From NCBI GenBank assembly GCA_029762535.1, contig JARVGK010000039.1:1-30592 (forward strand): a stretch of 30,592 nt of DNA. The letters run 5' to 3'. The notes beneath the pieces were generated by a model, which ran no database searches, had not been told where the DNA came from, and worked only from the letters and a program-made list of their open reading frames with translations. The translations under genes and the position numbers were made by a program. Source of the DNA: Thermoplasmatota archaeon (lineage in GTDB: Archaea; Thermoplasmatota; Penumbrarchaeia; Penumbrarchaeales; Penumbrarchaeaceae). The first letter of the stretch is position 1, and each line of letters starts with the position of its first letter. This document shows, piece by piece, positions 7,101 through 30,592 of the stretch.

Positions 7101-7225
7101 CCATGTTCTTGTTCCCTTCGAAGAACAGGTTCTTACTTCGGGTCTGGATATTATCAGAATAACCGAATTTCTTTGGTTTGTAAGAAACCAAACCAACATG
7201 GATTGGAATACCATGCCAATAGCCT

Positions 7226-9826: not shown

Positions 9827-9936
9827 AATTGATGGTAGGAAGGATCGATCCCGGGATCGGGACCTACGGACCGCCTCCAGGCGCTATCGCGGTCAGAAAG
9901 GCATTTAAGTACTCTTTCACCTACGGATATGATCTC

Positions 9937-14123: not shown

Positions 14124-15314
14124 ATGATGTATGTTCAGAGGGATCTCAGTGATCGGTTCCGGATGCTTTCCGATGCTATCAACATCATAGCATTGGTCGG
14201 TCCGAGACAGTGTGGAAAGACGACCTTTCTGAAACATATCTCAAAGGATATGGATGCCGGATACGTCACTTTCGACGATCCGGATGTCCGGTCTATATTC
14301 GAAGACGTGAAATCATTCGAGGGGGAATATGTGGTGGGGAATGGAATAACCATTCTCGACGAGGTCCAGTACGGCTCCGATCCCGGGATCAAGCTTAAAT
14401 ATCTGGCAGACCGCGGTCATAGATTGTGGATCACATCCTCATCCGAGATCCTGTTGTCGAAGGATGTCCTCTCATATCTCGTCGGTCGCGTCTCCATATT
14501 GAGGCTCTATCCTTTCAATCTCAATGAGATGGGCAGGGCCAGAGGCCACGGGATCCTAACTGAGGATATCGAGAGAAGGCTCGTAACCGAGCATCTACGT
14601 TTCGGGGGATATCCCGGGATCGTCACCCAGGATAACAACATTGTGAAGGTGGAACTTCTAAAGAGCCTCAACGAGACCCTTCTCCTCAAGGACATATCCA
14701 GGGCTTTCGCGATAGAGGACCTCGATGCCATGCAAAGGCTCTTGAGATATCTGGCATGGAACTCGGGTTCGGCAATGGCCATAGACGGCATCTCCTCCGA
14801 TCTGGGCATCTCCTTCCAGACCGTCAAGAAGTATATCGATGCTCTGTTCAAGAGCTATCTGATCATAGCCGTTCCCCCTTACTTCACGAACAAGGGCCTG
14901 GAGATAGTGAAGCAATCCCGATATTTCTTCCTCGATCAGGGTTTGAAGAATGGCATCATCAACGATCTCCCGCTCTTCCCGGAAGGCAGGGCGTTTGAGA
15001 ACTACATCGTATCCGAGCTCTACAAGGCGGGTTTCCGACCGAAGTACTGGAGGTCCAAGGGCGGGGCCGAGGTCGACATCGTCCTCGAGATCGGCAGGGA
15101 TGTAATCCCCATCGAGGTGAAGCTAACACTTGAGAGGATGAAAGTGGAAAGAAGTATGAGATCTTTCATTGACAAATATTCGCCGGATCGGGCTTTCATC
15201 GTACGGTACAAGGGCATCAAGGAAAGCATGGTGATCGGAAGCTGCAGGGTGGACTGCCTCGGTCCATCCTCTCTCATACGGGAACTGAAAAAAATCGGAT
15301 GCCTCGATCCGTGA
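14124..15314 (+). CDS. AAA+ ATPase (AAA_14 + DUF4143 type) with a C-terminal PD-(D/E)xK-like domain
   Basis: Walker A GPRQCGKT, Walker B LDEVQ, LVGR, LYPF, FGGYP, GRAFENYI and YWRSKGGAEVDIV...IPIEVK. Confidence 0.92.
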   Translation: MMYVQRDLSDRFRMLSDAINIIALVGPRQCGKTTFLKHISKDMDAGYVTFDDPDVRSIFEDVKSFEGEYVVGNGITILDEVQYGSDPGIKLKYLADRGHRLWITSSSEILLSKDVLSYLVGRVSILRLYPFNLNEMGRARGHGILTEDIERRLVTEHLRFGGYPGIVTQDNNIVKVELLKSLNETLLLKDISRAFAIEDLDAMQRLLRYLAWNSGSAMAIDGISSDLGISFQTVKKYIDALFKSYLIIAVPPYFTNKGLEIVKQSRYFFLDQGLKNGIINDLPLFPEGRAFENYIVSELYKAGFRPKYWRSKGGAEVDIVLEIGRDVIPIEVKLTLERMKVERSMRSFIDKYSPDRAFIVRYKGIKESMVIGSCRVDCLGPSSLIRELKKIGCLDP

Positions 15315-17060: not shown

Positions 17061-17164
17061 GGATACCAACCTTGAATTGAGGAATATCGAAACATGAAGG
17101 GGATCCCGCACCTCGTTGGGGGATCCTCGGTCGTAAAGACCCCACACAGTGAGGATCCCTTCGC
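17061..17164 (+). repeat. GGATCC-bounded dispersed repeat, copy R0 (degenerate core plus shared right extension)
   Basis: CAC(C/T)TCGTTGGGGGATCCTCGGTCGTAAAGACxCCAyACArTGAGGATCCCTTCGC is shared with ~21858-21913. The upstream part is a degenerate version of the core. Confidence 0.75.
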
Positions 17165-17339
17165 CCTTCTCATCAAAGACCAGGATATGGGGAAGACGTT
17201 CCGGACAAATACCCTGGGATGAGGCGGTTTTGTATGTGTTTCTCTGGAATTGTGTTTAAAAAAACCCAACACTATTCGGGTTCGGAACCAACGTTGAAAT
17301 AGATGACAAACCTTTTCGTATCCGGATGGTGGTGTAAGG

Positions 17340-18149
17340 ATGACATACCAGGCCGCTGATGGTTTCCGGGGAGGGGAGCCGTCGATAGGAGAGGCGTTCA
17401 GTTCGATGTTCAGGATCTACTTTTCGAACTTCTGGGAGTTTTTTGTATTGCTTCTGATCTTTCAATCCGTCATAGCACTCCTCAATATCATCAACGCGGG
17501 AATTACATTGTTCAACATACCTTTTATCGGGTTCATCTTCAACATCGGGACCGCTTTACTGGGGATCCTCCTGACAGCCGGTTTGATAGCAATGGCCGCA
17601 GAGGCGAGAATGAAGGGGTCCACAACGAGATCCAGAGCCTTCTCATTGATCGGAAAAAAGGCCCTTGCGATAATCGTGGTCAACATCATCGTCGGGTTGA
17701 TCATAATGATCGGCGTATGCCTTTGCATAATACCGGGTTTCTTTGCACTGGTCTATCTAATATGGGCGACTATAATCGTTGTGGTGGAAACCGCCGATAT
17801 TGGCGCATCAATTAAAATGAGCACCGATTTTGCCAAGAAGCACAGCCCCTACACGTTTATCCTGGCATATATCGGTGTGGCCATCCTTGTGTCTCTCTTT
17901 CAGGTCATGGTCCTGGGAGTGCCGCAGATGATAATGACATTTGGAGGTTTGGCCCTTTTCGGGTCCGGGGTCAGTATGGAAATGACGATATTTCTGATAA
18001 CTGTCATATCATCCGTGATCGCCATTCCGATCGTTTCCTTTTTCGGACCCTTTCTGCCGATATTCATCACGGATTATTATCTGCAGGCGATCGGCCCTCC
18101 GAGTGAGCCCATGCTCTCAGTCGAGAGGCGAGATTACGAGAGTGCTTAG
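17340..18149 (+). CDS. Multi-pass membrane protein (DUF975 / GDPD-membrane-domain-like)
   Basis: About 5-6 TM helices. The SIGEAF, CLCIIPG, VVVE...ASIKMS pattern is typical of this membrane-domain group. Confidence 0.78.
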   Translation: MTYQAADGFRGGEPSIGEAFSSMFRIYFSNFWEFFVLLLIFQSVIALLNIINAGITLFNIPFIGFIFNIGTALLGILLTAGLIAMAAEARMKGSTTRSRAFSLIGKKALAIIVVNIIVGLIIMIGVCLCIIPGFFALVYLIWATIIVVVETADIGASIKMSTDFAKKHSPYTFILAYIGVAILVSLFQVMVLGVPQMIMTFGGLALFGSGVSMEMTIFLITVISSVIAIPIVSFFGPFLPIFITDYYLQAIGPPSEPMLSVERRDYESA

Positions 18150-18323
18150 GATATCCGAACAGGGTCACAGTTCTTTGGGATCCCGACTTCGGGCATTTGG
18201 GAAAATGCCATCGGTCGATCCGGGTCTCTTGAGGGCAACAGGATCGAGACCCGGGACCTGCTGATAGTCTAAGCTATAATTTTAACAAAAGGTCTTTAAC
18301 ATCTTCTCATATTTCCGGTAGAT

Positions 18324-18740
18324 ATGCCCGGACCTGATTCCATCGTGGGGGACATGATCGCTCCCTGCGGGATGGACTGCGCCCTGTGCATGGCAGTCTC
18401 GAGGAAGAAGGATCCCTGTCCGGGATGCAGAGGTCCGGACGGGAGCAAGCCGAAATACTGCGTCTCCTGCAAGATGGTGGTATGCGAGAAGAGGGATAGC
18501 GATTTCTGTTTCACCTGCGACTCCTATCCCTGCAGGAGGATGAAGGACCTGGACAAGAGGTATAGGACCAAGTACTCCATGAGCATGATCGATAACCTCA
18601 AGACCATAAAAGAAGAGGGACTGGACAGGTTCATTGAAAAGGAGAGGGGGAGATGGATATGCGAAGGCTGCGGCGATCTGGTCTCGGTCCACAGGGACAA
18701 CTGCCTCAGCTGCGGATACAAATGGAGGAACAATGAATGA
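18324..18740 (+). CDS. DUF3795-family Cys-rich (metal-binding) protein
   Basis: APCGMDCALC, CPGC, CxxC...FCFTCDSYPC, SMIDNLKTIKEEGL and terminal CxxC...CxxC. Confidence 0.85.
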   Translation: MPGPDSIVGDMIAPCGMDCALCMAVSRKKDPCPGCRGPDGSKPKYCVSCKMVVCEKRDSDFCFTCDSYPCRRMKDLDKRYRTKYSMSMIDNLKTIKEEGLDRFIEKERGRWICEGCGDLVSVHRDNCLSCGYKWRNNE

Positions 18741-19177
18741 ATCCCGTCTTGAAGAAGTTGGGTTTCAAGGGCCAGGATCCCGTCCTTATCGTCGATGCTC
18801 CCCCGGAGTATGCCCCGATCCTCTCGGAGGTCCCGTCGGTGGTCCATAACGATCCCCGGGGGAGATACGGGTTCGTACAGTACTTCATCAGGAACCTCGA
18901 CTCAGTGAAGAGGGAAGCCCGGAGGATCGCAGGATCGCTTGAAGGGGACGGACACCTCTGGCTCTGCTATCCAAAGACCAGTTCCAGGAATTACAGGACC
19001 GATCTGACCCGGGATAACCTATGGTCGGTCCTTGGACCTTATGGATACGAACCAGTCACCCAGGTCTCCATCGACGATGACTGGTCGGCGATCCGATATC
19101 GTCACGTGGATCGGATCAGGAAGATGACCCGCAAGTTCGCAGCGACGGAGAAGGGTAAAGAAAGGATCGGACTTTGA
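18737..19177 (+). CDS. DUF3052-like hypothetical protein
   Basis: ATGA overlap with the upstream gene. VLKKLGFK, LWLCYPKTSS, DLTRD and VTQVSIDDDWSAIRYR motifs. Confidence 0.8.
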   Translation: MNPVLKKLGFKGQDPVLIVDAPPEYAPILSEVPSVVHNDPRGRYGFVQYFIRNLDSVKREARRIAGSLEGDGHLWLCYPKTSSRNYRTDLTRDNLWSVLGPYGYEPVTQVSIDDDWSAIRYRHVDRIRKMTRKFAATEKGKERIGL

Positions 19178-19228
19178 AAATATAAAAGTCCATCGTGTAC
19201 TTTATATCGATATCTTCCGATGGATATT
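19173..19228 (+). repeat. 56-bp duplicated intergenic segment (copy 1; copy 2 at 24490-24545)
   Basis: TTTGAAAATATAAAAGTCCATCGTGTACTTTATATCGAwATCTTCCGATGGATATT with one mismatch between copies. Contains the inverted arms TATAAA/TTTATA and CCATCG/CGATGG. Confidence 0.92.
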
Positions 19229-19297
19229 TATTAAAAATAGCAGAAAGTAATGTTATCCAGTATCATGTTTTTCTCTTTGGATCCCGATGGACGATCC

Positions 19298-19483
19298 ATG
19301 GCCTGGATCCTCATCCTCGGGAACTATTGTCAACGATGTGCAAATGATTTGAACAAGGACCGATCCTATCGAGGATATCATCGGATCCTCCACCGTCGAG
19401 ACCGTGTTCATCGATTACGAATATCTCAATGAGGTCCCCAAAGGGAATGCTATCGTCCGGATCGGATCCAGGATGAACATCTC
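19298..19483 (+). pseudogene. Degenerate 5' copy of the class I glutamine amidotransferase gene at 24618
   Basis: MAWILILGN vs MTRILVVGN. ETVFIDYEYLNEVPKG...GSRMNIS vs ETVTIGYDDLKGIPEG...GSRMNVS. Frameshifted, and ends at repeat R1. Confidence 0.8.
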
Positions 19484-19486
19484 TTA

Positions 19487-19546
19487 TGACCCCCTATTCT
19501 GGGGGAGGACGAAGAGAGCACTATTTCAAGGAGGACCCTCCACTTC
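19487..19546 (+). repeat. GGATCC-bounded dispersed repeat, copy R1
   Basis: GACCCCCTATTCTGGGGGAGGACGAAGAGAGCACTATTTCAAGGAGGACCCTCCACTTC aligns with the R3/R4/R5 core. Confidence 0.78.
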
Positions 19547-19554
19547 TCTGTGGA

Positions 19555-19695
19555 GGGTGGGATCCCCCTCCGGCCGCAGTATCCTTCAAGAGCCGAGATG
19601 GCTTCTATGATGTTCGATCCTGTCTCATCGCATCTTGGACAGGTCGATCCGTCCTTCATCTGCCTCTTCCAGTCGATCTCAAGGATCCGATCCAT
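19555..19695 (-). pseudogene. N-terminal fragment of a DUF2703 (thioredoxin-like CxxC) protein, truncated at repeat R1
   Basis: MDRILEIDWKRQMKDGSTCPRCDETGSNIIEAISALE matches the DUF2703 N-terminus. The frame then runs into repeat sequence. Confidence 0.68.
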
Positions 19696-19745
19696 GGAAG
19701 AACATCGTTTCGTGACGAAAGAGAGTTTTTCTGGAAGATACGGTC

Positions 19746-20366
19746 TCATCGTTTACGGACCATCCCCCAGTGATCGTTGTCCAGGACCTTGTATCTCTTC
19801 TTCACCTCGAACCCGAACCTCTCGTAATAGGGGACGTTCTTCTCCTTGCTCGTATCCAGCAGTATCGGGATATTATCCCGATCGATCCTCTCCAGCATGG
19901 GTTCCAGCATCATCTTCCCGTAACCGCTTTTCTGATGCTCGGGATCCACCCCGAGGATGAACAGGAACCAATGTCTTTCCTTTACGATCCCTTCCAGATT
20001 CTCTCCGATCTCCTTTCCGTAGCGTGAGAATCTCTTCATCACCGAGGACTCCATCCTGAACATCAGAGAGATGAAACCGGATCGAGCGCTTCTGATGAGG
20101 TTCATGTCGTTCTCCTCCGATCGGATCCAGAAGGAAACGCCCTCGAGCTTCCTTGAGGGGGAATACACCTCCCCGTAGAGGATCCCGAATCTGAGGAAGG
20201 GCACGAACATGACCGGGAGCTTCTTCCTTCTCATGAGAGGGTCCGGGATCAGTGTCATCATGTCCGGATCGTCGAAGAATGCCCTGGCGAGGACCTCGGA
20301 TCCCTTCTTGATATCGGATTTATCAAGTCGGTAGAGGTCCTGCAGTCCTGCCATAGGCCGGATCAT
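19746..20366 (-). CDS. GNAT-family N-acetyltransferase
   Basis: VLARAFFDDP, HWFLFILGVDPEHQKSGYGK (acetyl-CoA motif A) and LDTSKEKNVPYYERFGF. Confidence 0.92.
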   Translation of the reverse strand: MIRPMAGLQDLYRLDKSDIKKGSEVLARAFFDDPDMMTLIPDPLMRRKKLPVMFVPFLRFGILYGEVYSPSRKLEGVSFWIRSEENDMNLIRSARSGFISLMFRMESSVMKRFSRYGKEIGENLEGIVKERHWFLFILGVDPEHQKSGYGKMMLEPMLERIDRDNIPILLDTSKEKNVPYYERFGFEVKKRYKVLDNDHWGMVRKR

Positions 20367-20431
20367 GGAACGGGGGGATATAATCCTTTCATCCGGGACA
20401 CATAATAGAAGGTTCTCATTTAATAAATTTT

Positions 20432-20457
20432 AATTAGTTAATTTAAAATAACTAATT
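20432..20457. promoter_or_regulatory. Perfect inverted repeat (9-bp arms) around a TATA-like box upstream of the ATPase gene; putative operator
   Basis: AATTAGTTA-ATTTAAAA-TAACTAATT, ending 15 bp before ATG 20473, in the divergent intergenic region. Confidence 0.6.
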
Positions 20458-20472
20458 TGCTTTAACTATATT

Positions 20473-21678
20473 ATGGACCTGATCATAGGCAGGACTGAAG
20501 CCTCGTTCATCAAGGAGAAATGGACCCTTCTGTACGGGAGACGAAAGACCGGCAAGACCTATATCCTCAACCGGTTCTTCGGATCGGACCTCTACGTGCT
20601 CGTGGCACGTGAAGGGACGATATGGGTGCAAGGGGACATCCAGAGGAAGATGGCATCCCCTGACGAGATGGCGGATGTGGTCAGGGAATACCTGCTCAAA
20701 GGGAAGAAGGTCATAATAGATGAATTCCAGAGGCTTCCTTCGGATACGATGGAATGGATCTCCTCTGTCCATCCTTCGGGACAGCTTGTGATCTCCGGGT
20801 CCTCCATGGGTGTCGTCAAGAGGATATTGGGTCCGAGATCGCCCCTCCTGGGAAAGTTCAGCTTTATCAAATTGTCAACGATCGAACCGTCAGACCTGAT
20901 AAGGGAGATGCCTCAAGATGTCCCTCTCGATCTCGCACCATACTTATCCGACCCGTGGACGATACCTTTCCTTGAAAAGGGTAAGATACTTGAAGAGATG
21001 CGAAAGATGCTCTCCGGGACATCATATACGGTGCCTGCCCTCATCGGGGAGATCTTTCATGAGGAGGACCGGATCCTCTCGGAGATATATCAGGGGATAT
21101 TGGCATCCATAGGCGCCGGAAGGGCCAGGGCCATAGACATAGCGAGCCTTCTGTATTCCAAAGGGTTGATCAAGCAGGAATCCGCATCGCAGGTATCTCC
21201 CTATCTCAACGCGCTGAAGGATATGGGGATCGTAGAGTCGGTAGGGATATACGGGAAAAAGAGGGAGGTTGTACGTTTCGTATCCCAGATGATGACCTTC
21301 TATTATTACATGGAATCCAAGTACGGTCTCGAGAGGGGGCTGCCATCCTATTCAGAATCGAGGGAGAACCTCTCCCGGGTCCATTCGATCTGTATGGAAC
21401 ACTATCTGGTCAAGGCCTATGCCAGAAAACTGGAAGGATACCTTGGATACTCCTTCGATCCTGAGATCGACGGGATCGTCGTGAACAGGAAGGGAAATCC
21501 TATCGCGGTCATCGAGGTGAAATGGACCGATCTTGGGAAAAGGGATATCGATAATTTCATCGAGAAGACTGATGGGTTCGACTGCCCCAGATATATTCTG
21601 ACAAAGAAAGAGGTCCCGATCGATGATGATGTGACGGTCCATGGAGAGGGATCGATCCGAAGTTTCCTCAAAGGGTGA
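20473..21678 (+). CDS. Archaeal-type ATPase (ATPase_2 + winged HTH + DUF234-like PD-(D/E)xK domain)
   Basis: LLYGRRKTGKT, IIDEFQRL, ISGSS, SPLLGK. HTH-like YQGILASIGAG...YLNALKDMGIV. C-terminal EIDGIV...IEVKW. Confidence 0.9.
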   Translation: MDLIIGRTEASFIKEKWTLLYGRRKTGKTYILNRFFGSDLYVLVAREGTIWVQGDIQRKMASPDEMADVVREYLLKGKKVIIDEFQRLPSDTMEWISSVHPSGQLVISGSSMGVVKRILGPRSPLLGKFSFIKLSTIEPSDLIREMPQDVPLDLAPYLSDPWTIPFLEKGKILEEMRKMLSGTSYTVPALIGEIFHEEDRILSEIYQGILASIGAGRARAIDIASLLYSKGLIKQESASQVSPYLNALKDMGIVESVGIYGKKREVVRFVSQMMTFYYYMESKYGLERGLPSYSESRENLSRVHSICMEHYLVKAYARKLEGYLGYSFDPEIDGIVVNRKGNPIAVIEVKWTDLGKRDIDNFIEKTDGFDCPRYILTKKEVPIDDDVTVHGEGSIRSFLKG

Positions 21679-21803
21679 TCCGAATCATCGGACCGACCGA
21701 TTCGAGACGGTGAAACGATCTTTCGATATCGTTCTCTTTATTCATTTTGCTTGTGAAGAACGAACATATCTCATTTCAGATGGCCTTCTCCTGTCCCGTG
21801 AGA

Positions 21804-21913
21804 GGGATCCCCCCTTCGAAGAGGAGGAAGGAAAGCTCGAGATCAAAGAGGACTCCACACTTCGTTGGGGGATCCTCGGTCGTAAAGACACCATACAATG
21901 AGGATCCCTTCGC
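21804..21913 (+). repeat. GGATCC-bounded dispersed repeat, copy R2 (core plus right extension)
   Basis: GGGATCCCCCCTTCGAAGAGGAGGAAGGAAAGCTCGAGATCAAAGAGGACTCCACACTTC followed by the extension shared with R0. Confidence 0.85.
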
Positions 21914-22022
21914 TCCATGCTCAAATGAGCTTTTTCCAGGATAGCTATCAGGTCTTCAGGAATTACGGGTGTATTTATGATAACCTATTTAGCAATGGTA
22001 TCTTTTATACCTTCGACCATTT

Positions 22023-22499
22023 ATGAAAAAACTCAAGGTCTACATGGATACTTCGGTCATTGGCGCACTTTATGACAGGGAAGACCCGCTAAGAATTAAA
22101 ACCACGGAAAAGTTGCTAGAGATATTTAGAATAAAGAAACAATATGATCCATATATTTCAAATATTTTAATTGAGGAAGTGGAGGAAGCTCCGGATACCA
22201 TCAGAGAACCTATGAAAAATATCATAAAGGATGTTGATTTTTATATTATTATGGAGAATGATGAATCAGCAGAGTTATTTGATGCATATATGAAAGAAAA
22301 AATGATCAATCCGAAGTACAGGGATGATGCAAGACATGTATCCCTGTCCGTGGTAAACAATATGGATATCATCGTATCATGGAACTGTAAACACCTGTGT
22401 AACATCCACAAGAAAAGGAAGTTCAATGCCGTGAATATTCTGATGGGTTATAAAGAGATAGATATTATCACTCCTTTGGAGGTGATCGGGGATGACTGA
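22023..22499 (+). CDS. PIN-domain (VapC-like) ribonuclease toxin
   Basis: KVYMDTSVI, ISNILIEEV, DDARHVSLS and DIIVSWNCKHL carry the acidic PIN residues. AT-rich sequence. Confidence 0.9.
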   Translation: MKKLKVYMDTSVIGALYDREDPLRIKTTEKLLEIFRIKKQYDPYISNILIEEVEEAPDTIREPMKNIIKDVDFYIIMENDESAELFDAYMKEKMINPKYRDDARHVSLSVVNNMDIIVSWNCKHLCNIHKKRKFNAVNILMGYKEIDIITPLEVIGDD

Positions 22500-22644
22500 A
22501 TGGGACCATTATTCCCTGGAGTGGATCCATAAAATCAGGGAAAGGAATTACCAGAAGACGAAGGACGAACCGATCGAAGAAGTTATCAAAAAGAGTGTTG
22601 ATCGTTCTAAAAAAGTCCTTAAGTATTATAAGAGATCGGAATAA
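22492..22644 (+). CDS. Small 50-aa protein overlapping the PIN gene 3' end; putative antitoxin
   Basis: Not in the ORF track (<60 aa): MTEWDHYSLEWIHKIRERNYQKTKDEPIEEVIKKSVDRSKKVLKYYKRSE. GGAGGTGA RBS at 22478-22485. 8-bp overlap with the PIN gene. Confidence 0.72.
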   Translation: MTEWDHYSLEWIHKIRERNYQKTKDEPIEEVIKKSVDRSKKVLKYYKRSE

Positions 22645-22783
22645 TATCCATGGGATCTGAGAGAGGAGGACCAATGAAATGAATATTTTTAGAGTTGAAA
22701 ATCAATGTAATCCGGGCTTCCGATCGATCCCGGTGAGAAATCGAAGGGATCGATGCCGTCCTATGGAGTTTAGGAAGAAGGAC

Positions 22784-22811
22784 TTTAAATATTCCTTTTG
22801 CTTATAAGCAA
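22784..22811. promoter_or_regulatory. TATA-like box followed by a perfect 14-bp palindrome upstream of the ATPase gene
   Basis: TTTAAATA at 22784-22791 and TTGCTTATAAGCAA at 22798-22811, 5 bp before ATG 22817. Confidence 0.6.
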
Positions 22812-22816
22812 TAGAA

Positions 22817-24223
22817 ATGGAGCCGATCGAGAATATAATGGCCCTTGGGAGATCACTTGTCGGAGCATATACAGAGGATGGGAGGGGTTTGCTTCCGATC
22901 AGAAGGATCGCCGGATCCGTGATCGATGATTGCCTCTTAAGAAGCAATGATATGTCGAAAAGACCGAGGGTCCTCATCCTGTCCGGGCTAAGAGGTGTCG
23001 GGAAGACGACCATCCTTTTCCAGGCGATCAGGGATCTCACCAAGGCGGGCATACCTCAGGACGATATCATATTCGTCTCGATGGACAGGGCCGCGTTCTC
23101 CGGATCCTCGATCCGGGACATTGTCGTGAATTACGAGAGGATGAGAGGCCGTCACCTGATCGATATCGGGAGGCCGGTCTTCTTCTTCATCGATGAGGCC
23201 CACTATTCAGATAAATGGGCGCTGCAGTTGAAGACGCTTACCGATGAGGCTCCAAATGCCGTCTTCGTCGCGACAGGCAGTTCCGCTCTGGAACTGGAGA
23301 TATCCCCCGATCTCGCCAGGAGATCTTTGTCGTTGCATATTCATCCCCTGAATTTCCTTGAATTCCTTCAGATAAGGAGCAGAGGGGATCGAATCGATCC
23401 GTTGGATCATGATGCCATGAACGCTCTGTTCGACCGGAAGGATGCTGATAGCGCCTTCCTGGCTTTCGAGGGATCAATGGAAAGGGCCCGGCCGGCGATG
23501 AGAAAGTTGGGAGGTTACTCTCCGGGCTCCCTCGAGGCCTACATCCTGAAGGGAGGGCTGCCTTTCTCGATATCCATGGAGGATCCATATCCCCTTCTTT
23601 ACGACACGGTCAGGCGGATCATGGAGAAGGATGTCCCCATTGCGGGGGATCACGATCCCGGAACGCTCAGGGAACTTCCCAGGATACTCGGATCCATCGC
23701 ACCCTCTCCTGATATCTCGATGAACTCCATAGCCAGGGATCTGGAGGGTATGAGCGTGAAAACCGTGAGAGGGGTCCTTGACACCCTTTCCAGGACCGGT
23801 CTGATATTCGAGGTCGGGGTCATGGGTGGAGTGAAGAACACCCTGAGGTCCGATACCAGAAAGTATTTCGCCACCCCCTCGCTCGGATCGTGCATACTGA
23901 GGACCATGGGCAGGGATCCGAGGGATCATATGGGAAATCTTGCCGAGACCTCGGTCGTATCCCTTATCCATCACAGAATATCCGGGTTCTTCTCACTGAG
24001 GTACAGGAAGGATAGGGGATCCTGCGACCTGATAGTCTGTGGACCTTCGGGAAATGTCGCCGTTGAGGTCGGGTTTGGAAAGAAGCAGAACGGATCGACA
24101 CAGCTCAGGAGGACCATGAGAGAGTCGAGATGTAACTACGGGATCCTCATCTCTGACAGGGATCGTCCGGAGCTATCGGGGAATATCATCATGGTCCCAA
24201 TAAAAGAGTTCCTCTCTCTTTGA
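22817..24223 (+). CDS. AAA+ ATPase (AAA_14 + DUF4143 type)
   Basis: GLRGVGKT, FIDEAHY, ATGSS, DLARR, HPLNFLEF, GGLP, KYFATP, GNLAETSV and CDLIV...VEVG. Confidence 0.9.
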   Translation: MEPIENIMALGRSLVGAYTEDGRGLLPIRRIAGSVIDDCLLRSNDMSKRPRVLILSGLRGVGKTTILFQAIRDLTKAGIPQDDIIFVSMDRAAFSGSSIRDIVVNYERMRGRHLIDIGRPVFFFIDEAHYSDKWALQLKTLTDEAPNAVFVATGSSALELEISPDLARRSLSLHIHPLNFLEFLQIRSRGDRIDPLDHDAMNALFDRKDADSAFLAFEGSMERARPAMRKLGGYSPGSLEAYILKGGLPFSISMEDPYPLLYDTVRRIMEKDVPIAGDHDPGTLRELPRILGSIAPSPDISMNSIARDLEGMSVKTVRGVLDTLSRTGLIFEVGVMGGVKNTLRSDTRKYFATPSLGSCILRTMGRDPRDHMGNLAETSVVSLIHHRISGFFSLRYRKDRGSCDLIVCGPSGNVAVEVGFGKKQNGSTQLRRTMRESRCNYGILISDRDRPELSGNIIMVPIKEFLSL

Positions 24224-24268
24224 ACGAATTCGCAGAGGGTTTGATCGGATCCAGGATGAACATCTCTT

Positions 24269-24330
24269 GGGATCCCCCTTCTGGAGGGGAGAAAGAGGAA
24301 TGTCCGGGATCGAGGAGGATCCTCCACTTC
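24269..24330 (+). repeat. GGATCC-bounded dispersed repeat, copy R3
   Basis: GGGATCCCCCTTCTGGAGGGGAGAAAGAGGAATGTCCGGGATCGAGGAGGATCCTCCACTTC; 60/62 identical to R4. Confidence 0.93.
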
Positions 24331-24336
24331 GGTGGG

Positions 24337-24494
24337 AAGGTCCAGGATCCCGTCCTTATCCTCGATGCTCCCCGGGATTGTTCCTTAGGCCTCTCCGATA
24401 TCACTCCCGGGACCCATGCGGATCCCGAAGGGAGGTACCGTCCGGTTCTTCGTGTTGGACCTCGAATCGACAAATAAGAAGGGGTGGGGTTTGA
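24337..24494 (+). pseudogene. Degenerate, internally deleted copy of the DUF3052-like gene at 18737
   Basis: KVQDPVLILDAPRDCSLGLSDITPGTHADPEGRY vs KGQDPVLIVDAPPEYAPILSEVPSVVHNDPRGRY. Begins at the right edge of R3 and rejoins the 3' end of the gene and the duplicated 56-bp segment. Confidence 0.8.
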
Positions 24495-24545
24495 AAATAT
24501 AAAAGTCCATCGTGTACTTTATATCGAAATCTTCCGATGGATATT
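24490..24545 (+). repeat. 56-bp duplicated intergenic segment (copy 2)
   Basis: One mismatch to 19173-19228; lies upstream of the GATase gene. Confidence 0.92.
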
Positions 24546-24617
24546 CATCAATTTAGCATTAAGTGGATGCAATGATCGATGGTTATGTTTATCTCTTAGG
24601 ATCTCGATGAATGGCAT

Positions 24618-25268
24618 ATGACCAGGATCCTCGTCGTCGGTAACAAGGTCGGAGAGGGGCCGATGATCGGCGCAAGGATCGATCTTGTCGAGGATATCAT
24701 CGGATCCTATCCCGCCGAGACAGTGACCATCGGTTACGACGATCTCAAGGGGATCCCGGAAGGGATCGATGCCGTGATCCTGACCGGATCCAGGATGAAC
24801 GTCTCCGATGGTTCCACTAAGAGGAGGATCGATCACGTGGTCGGACTCATCAGGAATACTGATCTTCCGGTCCTCGGGATATGCTTCGGATTCCATCTGA
24901 TCATGCACGCCTTCGGATGTGATGTTAGGCGCAACGAGGCTTCTGGGGAGTCCAAGGAGCCTGATGGCACGTTCATCGACTTAGAGATCACAGACGATCT
25001 CGGAGTGGTCGGGAAAGGACATCACCCGGTGAACGCTGACCACAAGGATTATGTCGAACCGACCGATCCCGCCTTGGAAGGTGTTTTTCAAGTGCATGGG
25101 ACAAGCGTGGACGGCATTCTGAGCTACCTTCAATATGCGAGCCATATGTATAGGCCGATACATGCATTCCAGTTCCATCCCGAGTGTTTCGAGGGAGCTC
25201 CCATGAACGCGAAGGAGACCGGGATCGAGTTCCTCCATGGTTTCTTGTATCATACCCTGAAAGAATAA
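24618..25268 (+). CDS. Class I glutamine amidotransferase-like protein
   Basis: DAVILTGS, LPVLGICFGFH (nucleophile Cys) and FQFHPE (His-Pro-Glu). Confidence 0.9.
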   Translation: MTRILVVGNKVGEGPMIGARIDLVEDIIGSYPAETVTIGYDDLKGIPEGIDAVILTGSRMNVSDGSTKRRIDHVVGLIRNTDLPVLGICFGFHLIMHAFGCDVRRNEASGESKEPDGTFIDLEITDDLGVVGKGHHPVNADHKDYVEPTDPALEGVFQVHGTSVDGILSYLQYASHMYRPIHAFQFHPECFEGAPMNAKETGIEFLHGFLYHTLKE

Positions 25269-25344
25269 TCCGAGGTTCCATCCCAAACCCCCCACGGGGA
25301 GGATCCCGGGGAAAGAAGAAAATATCTGGCCTTAAAAGGGGGAG

Positions 25345-25406
25345 GGGATCCCCCTTCTGGAGAGGAGGAAGAGGAATGTCCGGGATCGAGGAGGATCCTC
25401 CACTTC
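25345..25406 (+). repeat. GGATCC-bounded dispersed repeat, copy R4
   Basis: GGGATCCCCCTTCTGGAGAGGAGGAAGAGGAATGTCCGGGATCGAGGAGGATCCTCCACTTC. Confidence 0.93.
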
Positions 25407-25445
25407 CGTGGGGAGAAGTTGATGGGATCTTCCGGCAAATTGGTC

Positions 25446-25727
25446 CTAAACGAAAAGGACATCATCCAGATCGAAGAGGAGATCCCCGCTCTTTCTCAGT
25501 TCATCCTTTTGCGGGATCTCGATCCCGAATAAACCGAACCTGGCCTTTTTATCCTTGCCGAAGATCCTGTAAAAATTGTTTTTCAATGACACCAATTCGG
25601 TCAATGCATCGTTTCTATCCAGGGTCCTTGCCTTTACCGAGATGGCCAACATCTCCTCTGAATCCCTCTTCAATCCATCGATGTCGAACAAATGATTATT
25701 TTTATAATCATTATAAACATAATACAT
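25446..25727 (-). pseudogene. Probable C-terminal remnant of an archaeal ATPase with a PD-(D/E)xK domain
   Basis: DIDGL...LAISVKAR...RFGLFG...LLFDLDDV resembles the EIDxx...ExKW...YGL...LFDLxD tail of DUF234-type ATPases. No ATPase motifs remain. Confidence 0.55.
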
Positions 25728-25903
25728 TTGTAAGGTATCTGCTCTTCTTATAGAGGGGGGATCGCTCTGTTAGCAGGAACAAGTAGGGGATCCGGGACCT
25801 GCGGTATCCTTTCGATCTTTCTATTGCCATTATTTTGGTATTGAAATCTTTTTTAATAGCTTATAAAGGTTAATTTTATATAGTTTTCTGCCCTTCTTTA
25901 CTT

Positions 25904-27139
25904 GTGTACGTTAAAAGGGATATCGAGGAAAAGGTCTTCGACTGGATCGGGGAGCGCGAGATAATTGCCATAATCGGGCCCAGACAGAGCGGGAAGACAA
26001 CTTTGATGGACCGTATCAAGGAACGGGCAATCGTCGAATGCGGCTACGATAAGGATCATGTCGTTTTCATCTCCTTCGAGGATGAGATAGAGAGATTGAA
26101 GTTCGAGGGGGATCCCTCGTCCTACATTCAGGCTCATCTCTTTGATGATGGAATGCATCTTTTTCTCCTGGACGAGGTCCAGTATGTCGAGAATGCGGGC
26201 CGGGCCCTGAAATTGATCTTCGACAGGTTCCACGATAGGATAAAATTCGTCATGACCGGAAGCAGCAGTCCTGACCTGAAGGACATCGGCGGATCTCTTG
26301 TGGGCAGGGTGGTCTTCTTCGAACTGTATCCATTCTCCTTCAAAGAGTTCCTTTTCGCCAGGGATGAGAAGCTTCACAATTACCTGTCCGGGAGAACGAT
26401 CGATCCGGAAGGTGAGATATCCTATGAAAGACCGGTTCTTCTGGACAGGTTGAACGTCTATCTGAAGGAGTATATCACCTACGGAGGTTTCCCGAGGATC
26501 GTGCTCATGGATGATATCGAGAAGAAGAGGATCCTTCTCAAGCAACTCGTCACGTTGTATATCGAGAAGGACGTGCTCAAGGTGCATGGATCAGCTTTCA
26601 GGAACGATGCGCTGAGAGTGGTCCAGTATCTTGCTTTCAACTGTTGCGGACTGCTGAATCGGGATGCGGTATCCTCGGAACTCGGCATCAAGGTCAAGAA
26701 GGTCCAGGAGACACTCGATATCCTCGAGGATTCCTTCCTGATCAAAAGGATCAGACCATATTTTGGCAACCTCTCCACTGAGTTGCGGAAGATGACAAAG
26801 GTCTTTTTCGTGGATAGCGGCATGAGAAATGTCCTTGCGGAGGACTTTGTCTTCTCGAGGGACAAGGGTTTTCTGCTGGAGAATTACGTATTCTCTGAAT
26901 TGAACCGGAAGGAGGGGACGTTGAAGTACTGGAGGACCACGGCCAAGGCCGAGGTGGATTTCGTCTTCCGGGACAGGATCCCGGTAGAGGTCAAATCCAC
27001 CCCGAGGATAACCAGATCCCTCAGGTCGTTCATATCAGCATACTCTCCCGACAGAGCGATCATCGTGAATTATGATACATTTGAGAAGACAGGGATCGAT
27101 GGGACGGAAATAGCCATAGTTCCAGCAGCTCTCTTTTGA
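25904..27139 (+). CDS. AAA+ ATPase (AAA_14 + DUF4143 type) with a C-terminal PD-(D/E)xK-like domain
   Basis: GTG start. GPRQSGKT, LDEVQY, TGSSS, SLVGR, LYPFSFKEF, YGGFP, KVFFVDSG, GFLLENYV and YWRTTAKAEVDFV...PVEVK. Confidence 0.93.
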   Translation: MYVKRDIEEKVFDWIGEREIIAIIGPRQSGKTTLMDRIKERAIVECGYDKDHVVFISFEDEIERLKFEGDPSSYIQAHLFDDGMHLFLLDEVQYVENAGRALKLIFDRFHDRIKFVMTGSSSPDLKDIGGSLVGRVVFFELYPFSFKEFLFARDEKLHNYLSGRTIDPEGEISYERPVLLDRLNVYLKEYITYGGFPRIVLMDDIEKKRILLKQLVTLYIEKDVLKVHGSAFRNDALRVVQYLAFNCCGLLNRDAVSSELGIKVKKVQETLDILEDSFLIKRIRPYFGNLSTELRKMTKVFFVDSGMRNVLAEDFVFSRDKGFLLENYVFSELNRKEGTLKYWRTTAKAEVDFVFRDRIPVEVKSTPRITRSLRSFISAYSPDRAIIVNYDTFEKTGIDGTEIAIVPAALF

Positions 27140-27186
27140 ATCTATCACCTCGTTGGGGATCCCATCGGGATCCGGGTGGGGCGCGT

Positions 27187-27264
27187 CTCTTTCCCTTCGT
27201 ATGGAAAGGGATCCCCCCTTCGGGAGGATGTAGGAAAGCTCCATTTCAAGGAGGATCCTCCTTC
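27187..27264 (+). repeat. GGATCC-bounded dispersed repeat, copy R5 (with a left extension shared with R6)
   Basis: TTCCCTTCGTATGGAAAGGGATCCCCCCTTCGGGAGGATGTAGGAAAGCTCCATTTCAAGGAGGATCCTCCTTC. A CACCTCGTTGGGGATCC piece matching the R0/R2 extension lies at ~27146. Confidence 0.85.
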
Positions 27265-27420
27265 AGTAGGATGAATTTAGAACCTCAATGATTTGGTAAT
27301 GAACTTGATATCATTTTTGGTAGGGAAAAATCGTACATCGGTCAGGGGGATCGCGGATCCAATGGGATCCCAATTATATTTTGAGGCATACCTCAGGTTG
27401 AGATCCCGTTTACAAGTGTT

Positions 27421-27630
27421 TCAAAGATCTTCCTCGCTCAATTCGGCATCCTCCATTATCCTCTTTACTATCTTTGGATGCAATATCTTACCTGAATGAC
27501 AGGGTAATGTGATCCTGATGCCTTCATCATTCCTCATGATCATATGGCTTCCACTCTGTCTGACAACGATGAAACCTTTCTTTTTCAGGATATGAAGCAT
27601 CTTATCAGAATCTATTCTGGGAAGTTTCAT
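27421..27630 (-). CDS. hicA: HicA-family mRNA interferase toxin
   Basis: 69 aa. LKKKGFIVVRQSGSHMIM and ITLPCH...ILHPKIVKRIMEDA; GSH catalytic motif. Confidence 0.92.
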   Translation of the reverse strand: MKLPRIDSDKMLHILKKKGFIVVRQSGSHMIMRNDEGIRITLPCHSGKILHPKIVKRIMEDAELSEEDL

Positions 27631-27851
27631 ACGGTTACTTCCAATGAGGTGAGGGAGATCATCTCCAATGTCTCTATCTTCTCTCCCATGGAGATCCTGT
27701 CCTTTACATGGAGTTGTATCACATCTTTGAGGTTCTCAATGACCTCCTCATACGTTTCTCCCTGGGCATAGCACCCTTGTAGTTCGGGACATAGAGCGAT
27801 GTAACCGTCGCTGTCCTTCTCCACGATGACGGAGAGTTTGTAATGCTCCAT
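27627..27851 (-). CDS. hicB: HicB-family antitoxin (short form without a C-terminal DNA-binding domain)
   Basis: From ATG 27851, preceded by GAGGT: MEHYKLSVIVEKDSDGYIALCPELQGCYAQGETYEEVIENLKDVIQLHV. ATGA overlap with hicA. Confidence 0.92.
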   Translation of the reverse strand: MEHYKLSVIVEKDSDGYIALCPELQGCYAQGETYEEVIENLKDVIQLHVKDRISMGEKIETLEMISLTSLEVTV

Positions 27852-28060
27852 TGTATCGACCTCTGTAGAAGTTACAACCGGATATGTTCCATATAAAGAT
27901 TTCACCTATGGGAATATCATCTTGAATAGGGTCCATCTTCCATTCCAGAGGGACCGTCGATGGAAACAGGGTTCCCTTTCGATCAGGATCAGAGAGGGAT
28001 CCCGAGCGATCCTTTGGATCTCCCCCTTCGAGGATCATGATGTATGGTTGTCGTAAATTC

Positions 28061-28114
28061 CATCGTATCAAATATTGCCTTTATGATACGGTGAATCGTA
28101 ACAGTTATATAAAA
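28061..28114. promoter_or_regulatory. Inverted repeat plus TATA-like box upstream of the ATPase gene
   Basis: CATCGTATCA-N13-TGATACGGTG (9/10 match) at 28061-28093, an extra ATCGTA half-site, and TTATATAAAA at 28105-28114. Confidence 0.5.
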
Positions 28115-28134
28115 CATAAGACCATGCCACATCC

Positions 28135-29448
28135 ATGGTCCCGGATAGAAGCACCATCTCCTCAAGCATTGTCGACTGGAACGGATGGTGGTCGAAAGGT
28201 AACGTTCCCGAGTCTCTCCTTGGACGACAGCGGATCCTCGATATCCCAATGGATCTGCTGCTGGAACGAAAAGAGATCAAGACGGTCTCCGGAATAAGAA
28301 GATGCGGAAAATCCACGCTGATCTATCAGATCATCTCGAATCTGATCGATGGCGGAACTCCACCGGAAAATATAGTCATGATAAACTTCGATGATAAGGC
28401 GCTCTCGGGGATCGAACTCGAACTTGCCCTCGACATATACAGGGAACTTATAAACCCACGGGGAAAGATGAACATATTCCTGGACGAGGTCCATAACTGC
28501 CCGGATTGGGTAAGCACGTTGAGAAAAATGTACGATCTTGCAAGGATCGATACCGTTTTCGTGACGGATTCGTCATCGAAGTACATATCCGGGGAATATA
28601 CGGTCCTTATCTCCGGTAGAACCATTGATATGAGGATACACCCGCTCAGCTTCAGGGAATTCGTTCAGTGGACCGGAGATGTGGATCCCGACGAACCCCT
28701 GGGGACCGAAGAGGCCGTTTGTATAAGAAGAAACCTGGATCAGTTCCTGAAATGGGGGGGATACCCCGAGGTGGTCCTGGCAAAGAGCGATCTCCAGAGA
28801 AAGATCATCCTCAAGGAGTACCTTGACACGATCATATACAAGGATCTGGTGGAGAGGTACAACGCCAACCACGAGAAGTTGAAGATAATGGTGGGGTACC
28901 TGCTCTCCAACATTTCCTCCCTTTTCAGCCCAAGAAGATTCTCCCGAAGACATGGCTTCTCCCTTGAGACCATCGATAATTATCTCTGTTACATGAAAGA
29001 GGTGAATTTCATACATACCGTACCCGGATTCGATTTCTCGTATGACAAGGTACTCAGGAGTCAGAAGAAGATATTCATCGAGGATCCCGGACTTGCTGAA
29101 ACATTCGGTTTCAAATTCAGTGAAGGAAAAGGAAAACTTCTCGAGAATGCCGTGTTCAATGAACTTAACAGACGGGGGTTCGAGCTGTTCTACTGGTCCG
29201 ATGGGAAGAGGGAATGCGACCTCATCGTCAAGCATGACATGGAGATACCTCTTGCGATACAAGTATGCCATGAACTGAGGGAAGAGAATATCGAGAGAGA
29301 GATCTCCGGGCTCGAAGGATGTATGAAGGCTATCGGGGCTAAGAAAGGGATCATCGTGGTCAGTGACGGATCCGATCTGGATACGAACGGGTTCGAGAAG
29401 GTCGTTTCATGGAGGTTCCTTCTCGATGTCCAGAAATATATAGGATAG
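28135..29448 (+). CDS. AAA+ ATPase (AAA_14 + DUF4143 type)
   Basis: SGIRRCGKS, INFDD, FLDEVHN, ISGR, HPLSFREF, WGGYPE, KIFIEDPG, GKLLENAVF and ECDLIV...AIQVC. Confidence 0.92.
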   Translation: MVPDRSTISSSIVDWNGWWSKGNVPESLLGRQRILDIPMDLLLERKEIKTVSGIRRCGKSTLIYQIISNLIDGGTPPENIVMINFDDKALSGIELELALDIYRELINPRGKMNIFLDEVHNCPDWVSTLRKMYDLARIDTVFVTDSSSKYISGEYTVLISGRTIDMRIHPLSFREFVQWTGDVDPDEPLGTEEAVCIRRNLDQFLKWGGYPEVVLAKSDLQRKIILKEYLDTIIYKDLVERYNANHEKLKIMVGYLLSNISSLFSPRRFSRRHGFSLETIDNYLCYMKEVNFIHTVPGFDFSYDKVLRSQKKIFIEDPGLAETFGFKFSEGKGKLLENAVFNELNRRGFELFYWSDGKRECDLIVKHDMEIPLAIQVCHELREENIEREISGLEGCMKAIGAKKGIIVVSDGSDLDTNGFEKVVSWRFLLDVQKYIG

Positions 29449-29650
29449 AAAAAGGTCGGAGCAGATCATCCAGGACGGGGAAGATGCGATCATGGATCCC
29501 AAAGAGAAGGAGATCACAACCAGGATCCAGTCCCCCGAAGAGATCCGGAAGAAACCCGTAAAACTCTTCCTGAAGGACCTGGCCAAAAATATAGGGATCC
29601 CTTCTCCTGATGATTTTCTCCCGGATCGGGGGGATCTCTTTTCAGATGAA

Positions 29651-29731
29651 TTTCCCCTTCGTATGGAAAGGGATCCCTCCATCGGGAGGAGGAAGAGGGA
29701 AAACCCCTTTTCAAGATGGATCCCCCACATC
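29651..29731 (+). repeat. GGATCC-bounded dispersed repeat, copy R6
   Basis: TTCCCCTTCGTATGGAAAGGGATCCCTCCATCGGGAGGAGGAAGAGGGAAAACCCCTTTTCAAGATGGATCCCCCACATC. Confidence 0.85.
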
Positions 29732-29867
29732 ATCATAACTAAACTACACCCTCTCTCCCTCTCAGAAGGGATCCCTCCCAGACTATTGGTCTGTTCAAGA
29801 TCCCCTGGGCACTACTCGGCGATCATGGCAAGTTAAAAATAGAGTCATCCATCTAACCTCATCGAAC

Positions 29868-30592
29868 ATGGACGAAAACAGCCTTCTTCAACTTATTCAA
29901 GGCGAGGAATGGAAAGATCTCGAGTTCAAGGTAGCCTCTAATGAGGTGCCCAAATCTGTATACGACACGGTCTCAGCTTTCTCCAACACGAATGGCGGAA
30001 CCATAGTTTTCGGAATCCACAAAGAATGATCCTCTTGCGACATCATAGGAGTGAGGAACGTCGACAAGGTCCAGAACGACTTCTTAAGCGCCATAAAAGG
30101 CGGAAAGTTGAACCACCGCATCGAGGTGAAAGAAGACCTGAAAGATGTCCAGGGCAAGAACATCCTTCTATTCCATATACCCGAAGCGGACCGAACGAAG
30201 AAACCGATTTATCCTAACGGTGATATCAGACAATCCTTCATACGGAGAGGCGGGTGCAATCAGAGATGCACTCAAGAAGAGATACACAGATTCCTGAGGG
30301 ATGCATCTTCCGAGCGATGGGAAGGGGAGATCATCGACCTCCCATTAGACAAGGCATTTGATGTTGAAGCTATAGCCTGGTACAGAAAGAAGTTCCAGGA
30401 GAACACTCCTGGTTACACCAATGGCAACGACATAGATTTTTTGCATGAGTGGGGCTATCTCGTCAGTAAAGACAGAAGGTTGTATCCTACAAGAGCATCA
30501 GTCTTGTTATTCGGATCAAACATGGCTTACCATCAGCTCTTATCCAAACCGGTCCTTGATATGCAATGGATTCCCGCAGGTATGAAGGACAA
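29868..30592 (+). pseudogene. AlbA_2 (Schlafen-like) domain protein, interrupted by an in-frame TGA; runs off the window end
   Basis: MDENSLLQLIQGEEWKDLEFK...VYDTVSAFSNTNGGTIVFGIHKE*SSCDIIGV...KKPIY...FIRRGG...TRASVLLFG. EFK and AFxNxxGGxIxxG are AlbA_2 signatures. TGA at 30027-30029, with the same frame open afterwards. Confidence 0.85.

Follow-up and report, generated by a model that had tools for sequence, protein, structure and literature searches.

Contig JARVGK010000039.1 of a Thermoplasmatota archaeon, analysed here over its whole length of 30,592 nucleotides (nt; the window), carries seven direct copies of a short intergenic repeat, R0 to R6, that separate modules of accessory genes, among them toxin-antitoxin (TA), acetyltransferase and ATPase genes. 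The source is a metagenome-assembled genome (MAG) of 2.96 Mb in 102 contigs, 93% complete; the window is its contig C35, and the other C numbers used below are further contigs of the same MAG. Our alignments within this genome showed that the repeats flank accessory modules, point one way within each locus, are more uniform than the cargo and carry breakpoints of past recombination at two short palindromic boxes.

Structure of the repeat unit

The alignment of 17 copies from four contigs showed that the unit is a non-coding mosaic of about 70 nt made of four parts, namely box L, an exchangeable middle of about 45 nt, box R and a short right end. Box L is GGGATCCC, reaching up to GGGGATCCCC in some copies, and box R is GGAGGATCCTCC, or ...GGATCCCCC. 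The middle is purine-rich, with the conserved end T(T/C)TCRARGAGGA, and falls into four classes, which are that of R3, R4 and the C62 copy C62a, that of R5, C62b and a partly deleted C62 copy (C62c), that of R6 and that of R1. The right end is a short C-run/G-run hairpin of the CCAC-TTCG-GTGG type. Both boxes are perfect palindromes in several copies, the palindromes being 8-12 bp long. The two boxes have the palindrome GGATCC in common but differ consistently (...CCCC in box L and ...TCC in box R), which argues that both belong to the unit itself and did not arise as target duplications.

Repeat finding, alignment and an nhmmer profile bore out the original prediction of seven plus-strand copies, six of them full and one (R0) decayed, and the spacings that it had given between them were correct. 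The full copies of the window obtained E-values of 4e-18 to 2e-14 with nhmmer against the whole genome. R0 (17061-17164, +) is barely recognisable in its left and middle part (17061-17096), where its alignment with R2 beats 99.85% of shuffles (p 0.0015), and its remainder (17097-17164), which comprises box R, the right end and a 45-nt right extension, is common to R2 at 60 of 68 positions (88%). R1 (19485-19562, +) is a full copy in which both boxes are mutated (GACCCC and GGACCC); its left junction is common to R3 and its right edge cuts off a DUF2703 gene. R2 (21803-21880, +) is full and reaches 21913 with the right extension that it has in common with R0. R3 (24269-24346, +) has box L at 24270, box R at 24317 and a right-end hairpin CCAC-TTCG-GTGG, and R4 (25345-25422, +) has its left flank and box L in common with a truncated copy on C62. 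R5 (27207-27280, +) starts at 27190 when an 18-nt left extension common to R6 is included, and its right flank (27250-27354) is common to the partly deleted copy on C62. R6 (29669-29747, +) starts at 29652 with its left extension, and its box R, at 29718, is a sharp breakpoint between the path of C35 and that of C62. The likeness that had been noticed between R3 and R4 is 60/62 over the core, as predicted, and 67/71 (94%) by BLAST, and the extensions that had been described to the left of R5 and R6 (89%) and to the right of R0 and R2 (88%) are real.

Folding was tested on 14 copy/strand combinations, as RNA and as DNA, against dinucleotide shuffles. Thirteen of the 14 were no stabler than their shuffles (z from +0.9 to -1.8), the one exception having a z of -3.2, RNAalifold found no consensus structure for the repeat, and Rfam gave no match in the window at gathering score. 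The unit is thus a palindromic box pair with a spacer and not an attC-like hairpin, and the idea of an attC-type hairpin site was dropped for these reasons. No tRNA genes that could have been integration targets were found in the window. An origin of the repeat from the tail of a 16S rRNA gene was also considered and was rejected, the 16S gene of C14 carrying a different hairpin with no link to the repeat. On C14 (145541-145590), the 3' end of this gene is followed by A8 and then by a perfect palindromic hairpin, GGGGGGATC-TTCG-GATCCCCCC, composed of the same words as the repeat boxes. The short contigs C71 and C76 carry rRNA-operon fragments that are 75-79% identical to the C14 operon, and that may come either from another, divergent operon or from sequences foreign to the bin.

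Gene modules between the repeats

The modules of the array differ in G+C content, from 0.40 to 0.55. Module 0 (17165-19484, +) contains the genes of a membrane protein (17340-18149) and of a DUF3795 protein (18324-18740), an open reading frame (ORF; 18737-19177) and a decayed copy of a glutamine amidotransferase module (18766-19483), of which the promoter and the first ~190 nt of the gene are fused to R1. Comparison of 18766-19483 with 24336-24805, in module 3, showed a decayed duplicate with 71-93% identity in blocks covering the leader, the promoter and the first ~190 nt of the gene, within which a duplicated promoter block with a AAAATATAAAAG...TTTATATCG element was better kept than the rest (89% over 73 nt). 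Module 1 (19563-21802, of no single strand) is made of a truncated DUF2703 gene (19450-19749, -), a GNAT gene (19746-20366, -) and the gene of ATPase A2 (20473-21678, +). Module 2 (21914-24268, +) contains a 158-aa ORF (22023-22499), with a 71%-identical paralogue on C15 (5153-5693), and the gene of ATPase A3 (22817-24223); its last 26 nt are a relic of the amidotransferase gene fragment. The lowest G+C content of any 1-kb interval of the window (0.397 against about 0.50) was found at 22001-23000, which spans the 158-aa ORF and the start of A3.

Module 3 (24347-25344, +), located between R3 and R4, the two most similar copies, is a single class-I glutamine amidotransferase gene (24618-25268; Pfam GATase, 2.8e-12) with its own AT-rich promoter region. 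Contigs encoding this protein were sought and none was on record, and a weak protein-level likeness between R3 and GATase beyond the junction (E 0.11) was judged to be due to chance. Module 4 (25423-27189, +) carries the gene of ATPase A4 (25904-27139), and module 5 (27281-29651, of no single strand) carries hicA (27421-27630, -), hicB (27627-27905, -), the gene of ATPase A5 (28135-29448, +) and, at 29458-29641, a mini-module of 184 nt of which C62 has a second copy with 84% identity. Module 6 (29748-30592, +) is cut by the end of the contig and contains a Schlafen/AlbA_2-type gene with a change of frame (29868-30029, then 30051-30590). This gene runs for 53 codons to 30029 and resumes in another frame at 30051, and is either a pseudogene or the product of an assembly error. 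There are seven AlbA_2 genes in the genome, three of which adjoin the repeat family and two of which are in an integron-like array on C25.

The five AAA_14/DUF4143 ATPases of the contig match PADLOC PDC-S01, a candidate single-gene defence family. A1, A4 and A5 carry both AAA_14 and DUF4143, A3 carries AAA_14 and matches PDC-S01 at 5e-29, and A2, which also has AAA_14, gives a weak match (4e-9). The gene of A1 (14124-15314, +) is outside the array, with no repeat downstream.

The hicA/hicB and GNAT genes that the original prediction had named as cargo are present, and other parts of its description were revised. The gene taken for an ATPase remnant is the intact amidotransferase gene of module 3, and tblastn with all ATPases of the genome found no ATPase remnant in the intergenic segments. 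The supposed PIN pair gave no Pfam PIN match, since 18324-18740 is DUF3795 and both 18737-19177 and 22023-22499 are without a match. The statement that four intervals end in an ATPase gene preceded by cargo holds only loosely; the link is with accessory cargo generally, and TA-pair modules on C25 are without an ATPase.

The position of the repeats relative to these genes bears on the view that they are cis-acting expression elements (3' terminators, processing sites, insulators or operators) maintained by selection, for which recombination would be a side effect of their identity. Most copies are found between a co-oriented gene, whose stop codon lies 45-220 nt before them, and the AT-rich promoter that follows, the palindromic boxes could bind a dimeric regulator, and genes combining AlbA_2 with a winged helix-turn-helix adjoin three or four of the islands. 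However, several neighbours are on the opposite strand (GNAT, hicAB and the C31 ATPases), the unit does not have the T-runs typical of archaeal terminators, its folds are close to those of shuffles, with neither a consensus structure nor an Rfam match, and it is absent behind housekeeping genes. We therefore regard a primary role in expression as very unlikely.

Breakpoints at the two boxes

The repeats are 57-97% identical at the nucleotide level, while the neighbouring ATPases are 21-35% identical in amino acids. The repeats are thus far better conserved than the ATPases, which argues that they were not simply co-duplicated with those genes.

Comparison of the reverse complement of C62 with C35 showed that the two are unalignable to the left of box R, whereas 125 of 127 positions are identical from GGATCC to the end of C62. 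C35 29795-29844 recurs without a difference as the first 50 nt of C62 and corresponds to a branch of the assembly graph just to the right of R6, so that two left contexts run into one right context. The copy C62a, which has its right end and flank in common with R6, combines this R6-type right end with a middle of the R3/R4 type (83-86%), which places an exchange point within about 7 nt of GGATCC. R4 and the truncated C62 copy have 55 nt in common up to GGATCCCCC and are divergent beyond it. A flank is common and the middle is different in three further pairs, R1/R3 (left junction), R5/R6 (left extension) and R0/R2 (right end), and what adjoins both R1 and R3 at the left junction is a fragment from the 5' part of the amidotransferase gene. 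Modules, middles and flanks are combined differently from one locus to another, and homology stops at the boxes. BLAST homology on the island contigs ended within 6 nt of GGATCC at 34 of 133 end-points, compared with 14 +/- 3 for random nearby positions, a count inflated by the non-independence of the points. Single modules are found between near-identical copies in two cases, the GATase gene between R3 and R4 and a HepT-MntA pair between copies on C25.

The original prediction had proposed that the repeats are recombination or insertion sites. The breakpoints of these paralogous junctions, which lie inside the repeat at its two GGATCC palindromes, are in favour of this part of the proposal, whereas no evidence was obtained for a dedicated enzyme.

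Distribution of the repeat family

The repeat family is not limited to the window and was also found on C31, C62, C25, C6, C72 and C88. A scan of the genome with model R1 gave 28 matches at E<=0.01, all of them on these six contigs and C35 and in one orientation per locus. C35 has seven copies, all +. C62 starts with two tandem units that have one GGATCC in common, and two truncated copies lie further in. C31 has at least 12 diverged copies, all - (14/14 in the orientation count) and often in doublets, C25 has six (50.8-53.6 kb), all -, the copies in the last third of C6 are all +, and the short contigs C72 and C88 carry further ones. Copies are located at several contig ends, so that the true copy number is probably higher than the number counted.

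The profile scan that had been suggested to assess clustering and orientation thus placed the family in few variable islands with one orientation each. Over 95% of the intergenic DNA of the genome is free of copies, which are found only beside accessory modules. Their neighbours are AlbA_2/HATPase_c_4, ORF6N, PIN, two more ATPases and an aldehyde dehydrogenase on C31; Fic, an MqsA-like zinc-ribbon protein and the tail of an AlbA-type gene on C62; and an AlbA_2 gene, a HEPN-MNT pair and a HepT-MntA pair on C25, the last of these located between near-identical copies about 1 kb apart. Cargo genes are on both strands, whereas the repeats of a locus are on one. A scatter resembling that of terminators or of repetitive extragenic palindromic (REP) sequences, which was the contrary case named with the original prediction, was ruled out by the clustering in islands, the fixed polarity and the presence of cargo on both strands.

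At four of five loci the repeats are oriented as the local GC skew would predict from its sign, and at the fifth (C6) the skew is near zero, which weakly hints at a strand-linked process. Agreement with the skew is what would be expected of single-strand transposition, and the repeat might then be a small non-autonomous mobile element of about 55-70 nt, comparable to a miniature inverted-repeat transposable element (MITE), a palindrome-associated transposable element (PATE) or the repeat sequence (RS) elements of Neisseria intergenic mosaic elements (NIMEs), inserted strand-specifically into intergenic DNA, with the modular appearance being incidental. In favour of this, the unit is discrete, its ends are sharp and its terminal boxes conserved, C62 and C31 carry tandem units devoid of cargo, and R1 lies between two truncated genes. 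Against such an element, there is no Y1 transposase or TnpB-type gene in the genome, the boxes differ consistently (CCC in box L and TCC in box R) and so do not form a target duplication, no pair of empty and filled sites was found, and copies occur only beside accessory modules. We consider a mobile element of this kind to be quite improbable.

Outside the genome, blastn of the repeat against 40 relatives gave only chance-level matches, a covariance-model search of 23 other genomes of the family gave only weak matches, inside coding DNA, and exact-pattern scans of two public collections of genomes and of metagenome contigs gave five matches and one match, respectively, in unrelated organisms, consistent with chance. 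On these comparisons the repeat is private to the lineage within the collections scanned.

Three PDC-S01-type ATPase genes of related genera lie between direct repeats of their own. In genome G003, one is located on C98 between private repeats at 8503-8582 and 10113-10192 and another on C25 of that genome between repeats at 7917-7956 and 9572-9611; in genome G004, one is located on C16 between private repeats at 157-255 and 1896-1994. These repeats are 40-99 nt long and 82-98% identical, and the families of G003:C98 and G004:C16 have 2-3 copies per genome. The process that yields repeat-bounded modules may therefore be a general one that uses lineage-specific sequences.

The conserved side of the array is marked by P0001 (15414-16916, -), a gene of 500 aa transcribed away from the array start. 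P0001 was examined as a hidden recombinase and was rejected, as it had no Pfam or NCBIfam match and its nearest Atlas clusters were bacterial hypotheticals followed by polysaccharide-lyase-like proteins; from these likenesses it looks like a lyase-type hypothetical protein. The nearest homologue to it in a set of 5.8 billion proteins has 70% identity. A comparison of gene order with the closest genera, for which P0001 served as the anchor, showed that only P0001 is common, no other gene of the window being found within 20 kb. The conserved, non-array half of the contig also includes the genes of 148-11286, where a 2189-aa protein rich in DxDxDG calcium-binding (thrombospondin type 3-like) repeats is encoded at 148-6717, adjoined by two LamG-domain genes (7226-8065 and 9814-11286).

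GGATCC and the search for a recombinase

The genome contains 3649 GGATCC sites, 87% of them in coding DNA. GATC, with 31,418 sites over the whole genome, is 2.7-fold over-represented, and CTAG falls to 0.11 of its expected frequency; the commonest hexamers are GGGATC, GGATCC and GGATCG, and GGATCC is not unusual given its pentamers. The highest density of GGATCC among all 5-kb windows of the genome, 6.0 per kb where the median is 1.0, was found at 20-30 kb of C35, in the array. The original prediction had described the repeats as bounded by GGATCC, and this stood in so far as the boxes contain it, whereas the word alone, with 3649 sites, is no special signal. Such abundance means that the hexamer alone is unable to serve as the site of an enzyme, and it makes these identical words natural crossover points for short-homology recombination between diverged repeats. 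A second repeat family, GAGATCCCC-TTAG-GAGGGGGATCCCC...GGATCCGAATGAG, built with the same GATCCCC/GGGGATC pieces, is present on C102 (47062, 54428 and 55701) in another GGATCC-dense island, where this family with its GGATCC core bounds modules.

Recombinase genes were sought throughout the genome. Tyrosine recombinases (PF00589) were found only at C25:101143 and C53:7817, together with a single resolvase (serine recombinase) on C58 and a single IS110 enzyme on C22; Y1 (IS200/IS605) transposases, including REP-associated tyrosine transposases (RAYTs; PF01797), and TnpB-type genes were not found in the genome. The IS110 element of C22 was examined as a source of a box-targeting enzyme and was discarded, its flanks being AT-rich and unrelated to the boxes.

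Integron components were sought in parallel. The absence of attC ends noted in the original prediction was borne out by a regular-expression search, which found no RYYYAAC...GTTRRRY pair on either strand of the window and neither motif in the seven repeats with 40 nt on each side. The absence of a dif-like layout was likewise confirmed, the copies of a locus being direct and the palindromes only 8-12 bp. IntI was sought as a PF00589 match, without regard to the additional domain in the enzyme of C25, and none was found on the island contigs. The repeats resemble integron sites in being co-oriented and 3' of unrelated cargo. C25 has at about 77-96 kb a separate hairpin-site array, adjoined by a tyrosine recombinase at 101 kb, which has no sequence in common with the repeat family.

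The array of the window might be suspected of being a true integron-type array, that is a cluster of attC sites lacking an integron-integrase (CALIN), on which the Xer-like integrase from the integron-like locus of C25 would act. The presence of hairpin sites beside a tyrosine recombinase in that locus (about 77-101 kb) and the co-oriented position of the repeats 3' of cargo are in favour of this. However, no RYYYAAC...GTTRRRY pair is present in the window, the repeats have no sequence in common with the C25 att sites and no significant single-strand fold, and the modules have their own promoters and mixed gene orientations. We find it hardly credible that the array is of the integron type.

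Another reading is a dedicated site-specific cassette system of an undescribed kind. A recombinase or nuclease encoded elsewhere would recognise the repeat and cut within the GGATCC boxes, and modules would enter and leave as circles, as in integrons; the candidates are an Xer-like integrase, a serine recombinase, an IS110-family enzyme or the PDC-S01 ATPase of the cargo itself, with its PD-(D/E)xK-like DUF4143 tail. The crossover intervals of about 7 nt or less, inside a palindrome, point in this direction, as do the perfect palindromic boxes of several copies, the strict polarity, the homogenisation of private repeats within each array, as in sedentary integrons, the other family with a GGATCC core that bounds modules on C102, and the over-representation of ATPase-nuclease genes among the cargo of C35. 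On the other hand, there is no recombinase gene on C35, C31 or C62 or near the copies of C25 and C6, each unit has two alternative crossover positions, the sites of known tyrosine or serine recombinases are longer than the boxes, whose core word occurs thousands of times in genes, truncated genes are found at the repeat edges, and the C25 modules are without an ATPase. A system of this type is, in our estimation, unlikely. We judge equally doubtful the corresponding archaeal cassette system, in which the private repeat of ~70 nt, with its two GGATCC-centred palindromes, would be the site of a trans-acting enzyme (a homing-like PDC-S01 ATPase/PD-(D/E)xK nuclease or a borrowed host recombinase), and TA and defence modules would be captured and reshuffled without attC hairpins or IntI.

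Discussion

With moderate confidence, we interpret the repeats as the junction repeats of a cassette-like accessory-gene array, in which the boxes would be the points where DNA was joined time and again. Copies would recombine with others of their own array, with those of another array or with incoming DNA in which a copy is present, and recombination between copies would insert, delete and reshuffle modules, with insertion taking place between near-identical copies such as R3 and R4 or the C25 pair. The TA pairs, PDC-S01 ATPase-nucleases, AlbA_2 genes and stray metabolic genes would have been acquired independently, and the tandem cargo-less units and the gene truncations at the repeat edges would be by-products. 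As to what joins the boxes, we slightly favour short-homology or homologous recombination by the host, as against a dedicated enzyme that would act in trans on the boxes and the neighbouring repeat sequence, because GGATCC-type words are the commonest identical words and no recombinase is present beside the arrays.

Several points weigh against reading the repeats as junctions of a cassette-like array. The evidence on the repeats is throughout a matter of paralogy inside one MAG, as judged from its contigs, and mobility is seen as past paralogous breakpoints, with no direct event. C62 may be a paralogue instead of a strain allele. The enrichment of homology end-points near GGATCC is partly circular, because local alignments tend to stop at the edges of conserved motifs. 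GGATCC is abundant everywhere and cannot define a site by itself. The gene truncations at R1 indicate that some events were illegitimate and not clean cassette exchanges. No tyrosine, serine, IS110 or Y1 enzyme was found on the island contigs. Lastly, there were no same-genus genomes in the collections searched, and none of the metagenome contigs scanned carries the repeat.

Among known systems, the closest in design are the NIME/dRS3 arrays of Neisseria, which are thought to drive gene exchange. In NIMEs, dRS3 cores (ATTCCC-N8-GGGAAT) flank RS elements and have been proposed as substrates of homologous recombination or as targets of a recombinase acting in trans (PMC1797815). Like NIMEs, the repeats described here have short palindromic or inverted-repeat cores around exchangeable middles of ~50-150 nt, and their units are concatenated with one core in common, beside variable genes, in mosaic combinations that vary. 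This layout was found in the exchangeable middles between cores, in C62b and C62a, which have one GGATCC in common, in the doublets of C31 and in the variable genes alongside. Unlike NIMEs, they occur in an archaeal host, with strict one-way polarity and with other cores, GGGATCCC and GGAGGATCCTCC instead of ATTCCC-N8-GGGAAT; most are single units between modules of whole genes, 1-2.5 kb in size, their copies number only some tens and are limited to few islands, and there is no linked phage-borne enzyme of the IS110 type.

Sedentary chromosomal integrons and CALINs occur in archaea too (PMC9668308). The repeats resemble these in being co-oriented and species-private, in being located 3' of cargo rich in TA and accessory genes and in being more alike than that cargo, and CALIN arrays can also stand without an adjacent integrase. 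They differ in having no R''/R' motifs, no structure-specific hairpin and no IntI, in their larger modules with their own promoters and some reversed genes, and in the two breakpoint positions of each unit.

In the pdif modules of Acinetobacter plasmids and in the arrays of integrative mobile elements exploiting Xer (IMEX) at dif, a host enzyme encoded elsewhere uses short sites that bound modules. The array of the window has in common with such Xer/dif arrays its accessory and TA modules bounded by short repeats. The pdif sites are 28 bp long, with an 11-6-11 architecture and alternating orientation, whereas the repeats here, judged on orientation and length, are direct, of ~70 nt and with two palindromes of 8-12 bp.

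REP sequences and bacterial interspersed mosaic elements (BIMEs) associated with RAYT, as well as PATEs derived from IS200/IS605, are short G+C-rich palindromic repeats located in intergenic DNA 3' of genes, for which a strand bias is possible. The repeats are also short, G+C-rich, palindrome-bearing, intergenic and 3' of genes. They differ in being limited to seven contigs, in accessory islands, with one orientation per locus, and no Y1/RAYT or TnpB gene is present in the genome; the genome-wide scatter in two orientations that is usual for REP/BIME, with its RAYT, was not found. As to MITEs, the boxes differ from each other and so are not duplications, and no empty and filled sites could be paired.

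To our knowledge, the assembly of the variable defence/TA islands of archaea is unexplained apart from a few integrons. The repeats give a testable handle on it, with crossover intervals of ~7 nt at two palindromes and few candidate enzymes. If recombination is only driven by homology, the array would be an ordinary, though neat, case of repeat-mediated island scrambling. If recombination at the boxes proves true, archaea would have a second route, independent of integrons, by which cassettes accumulate.

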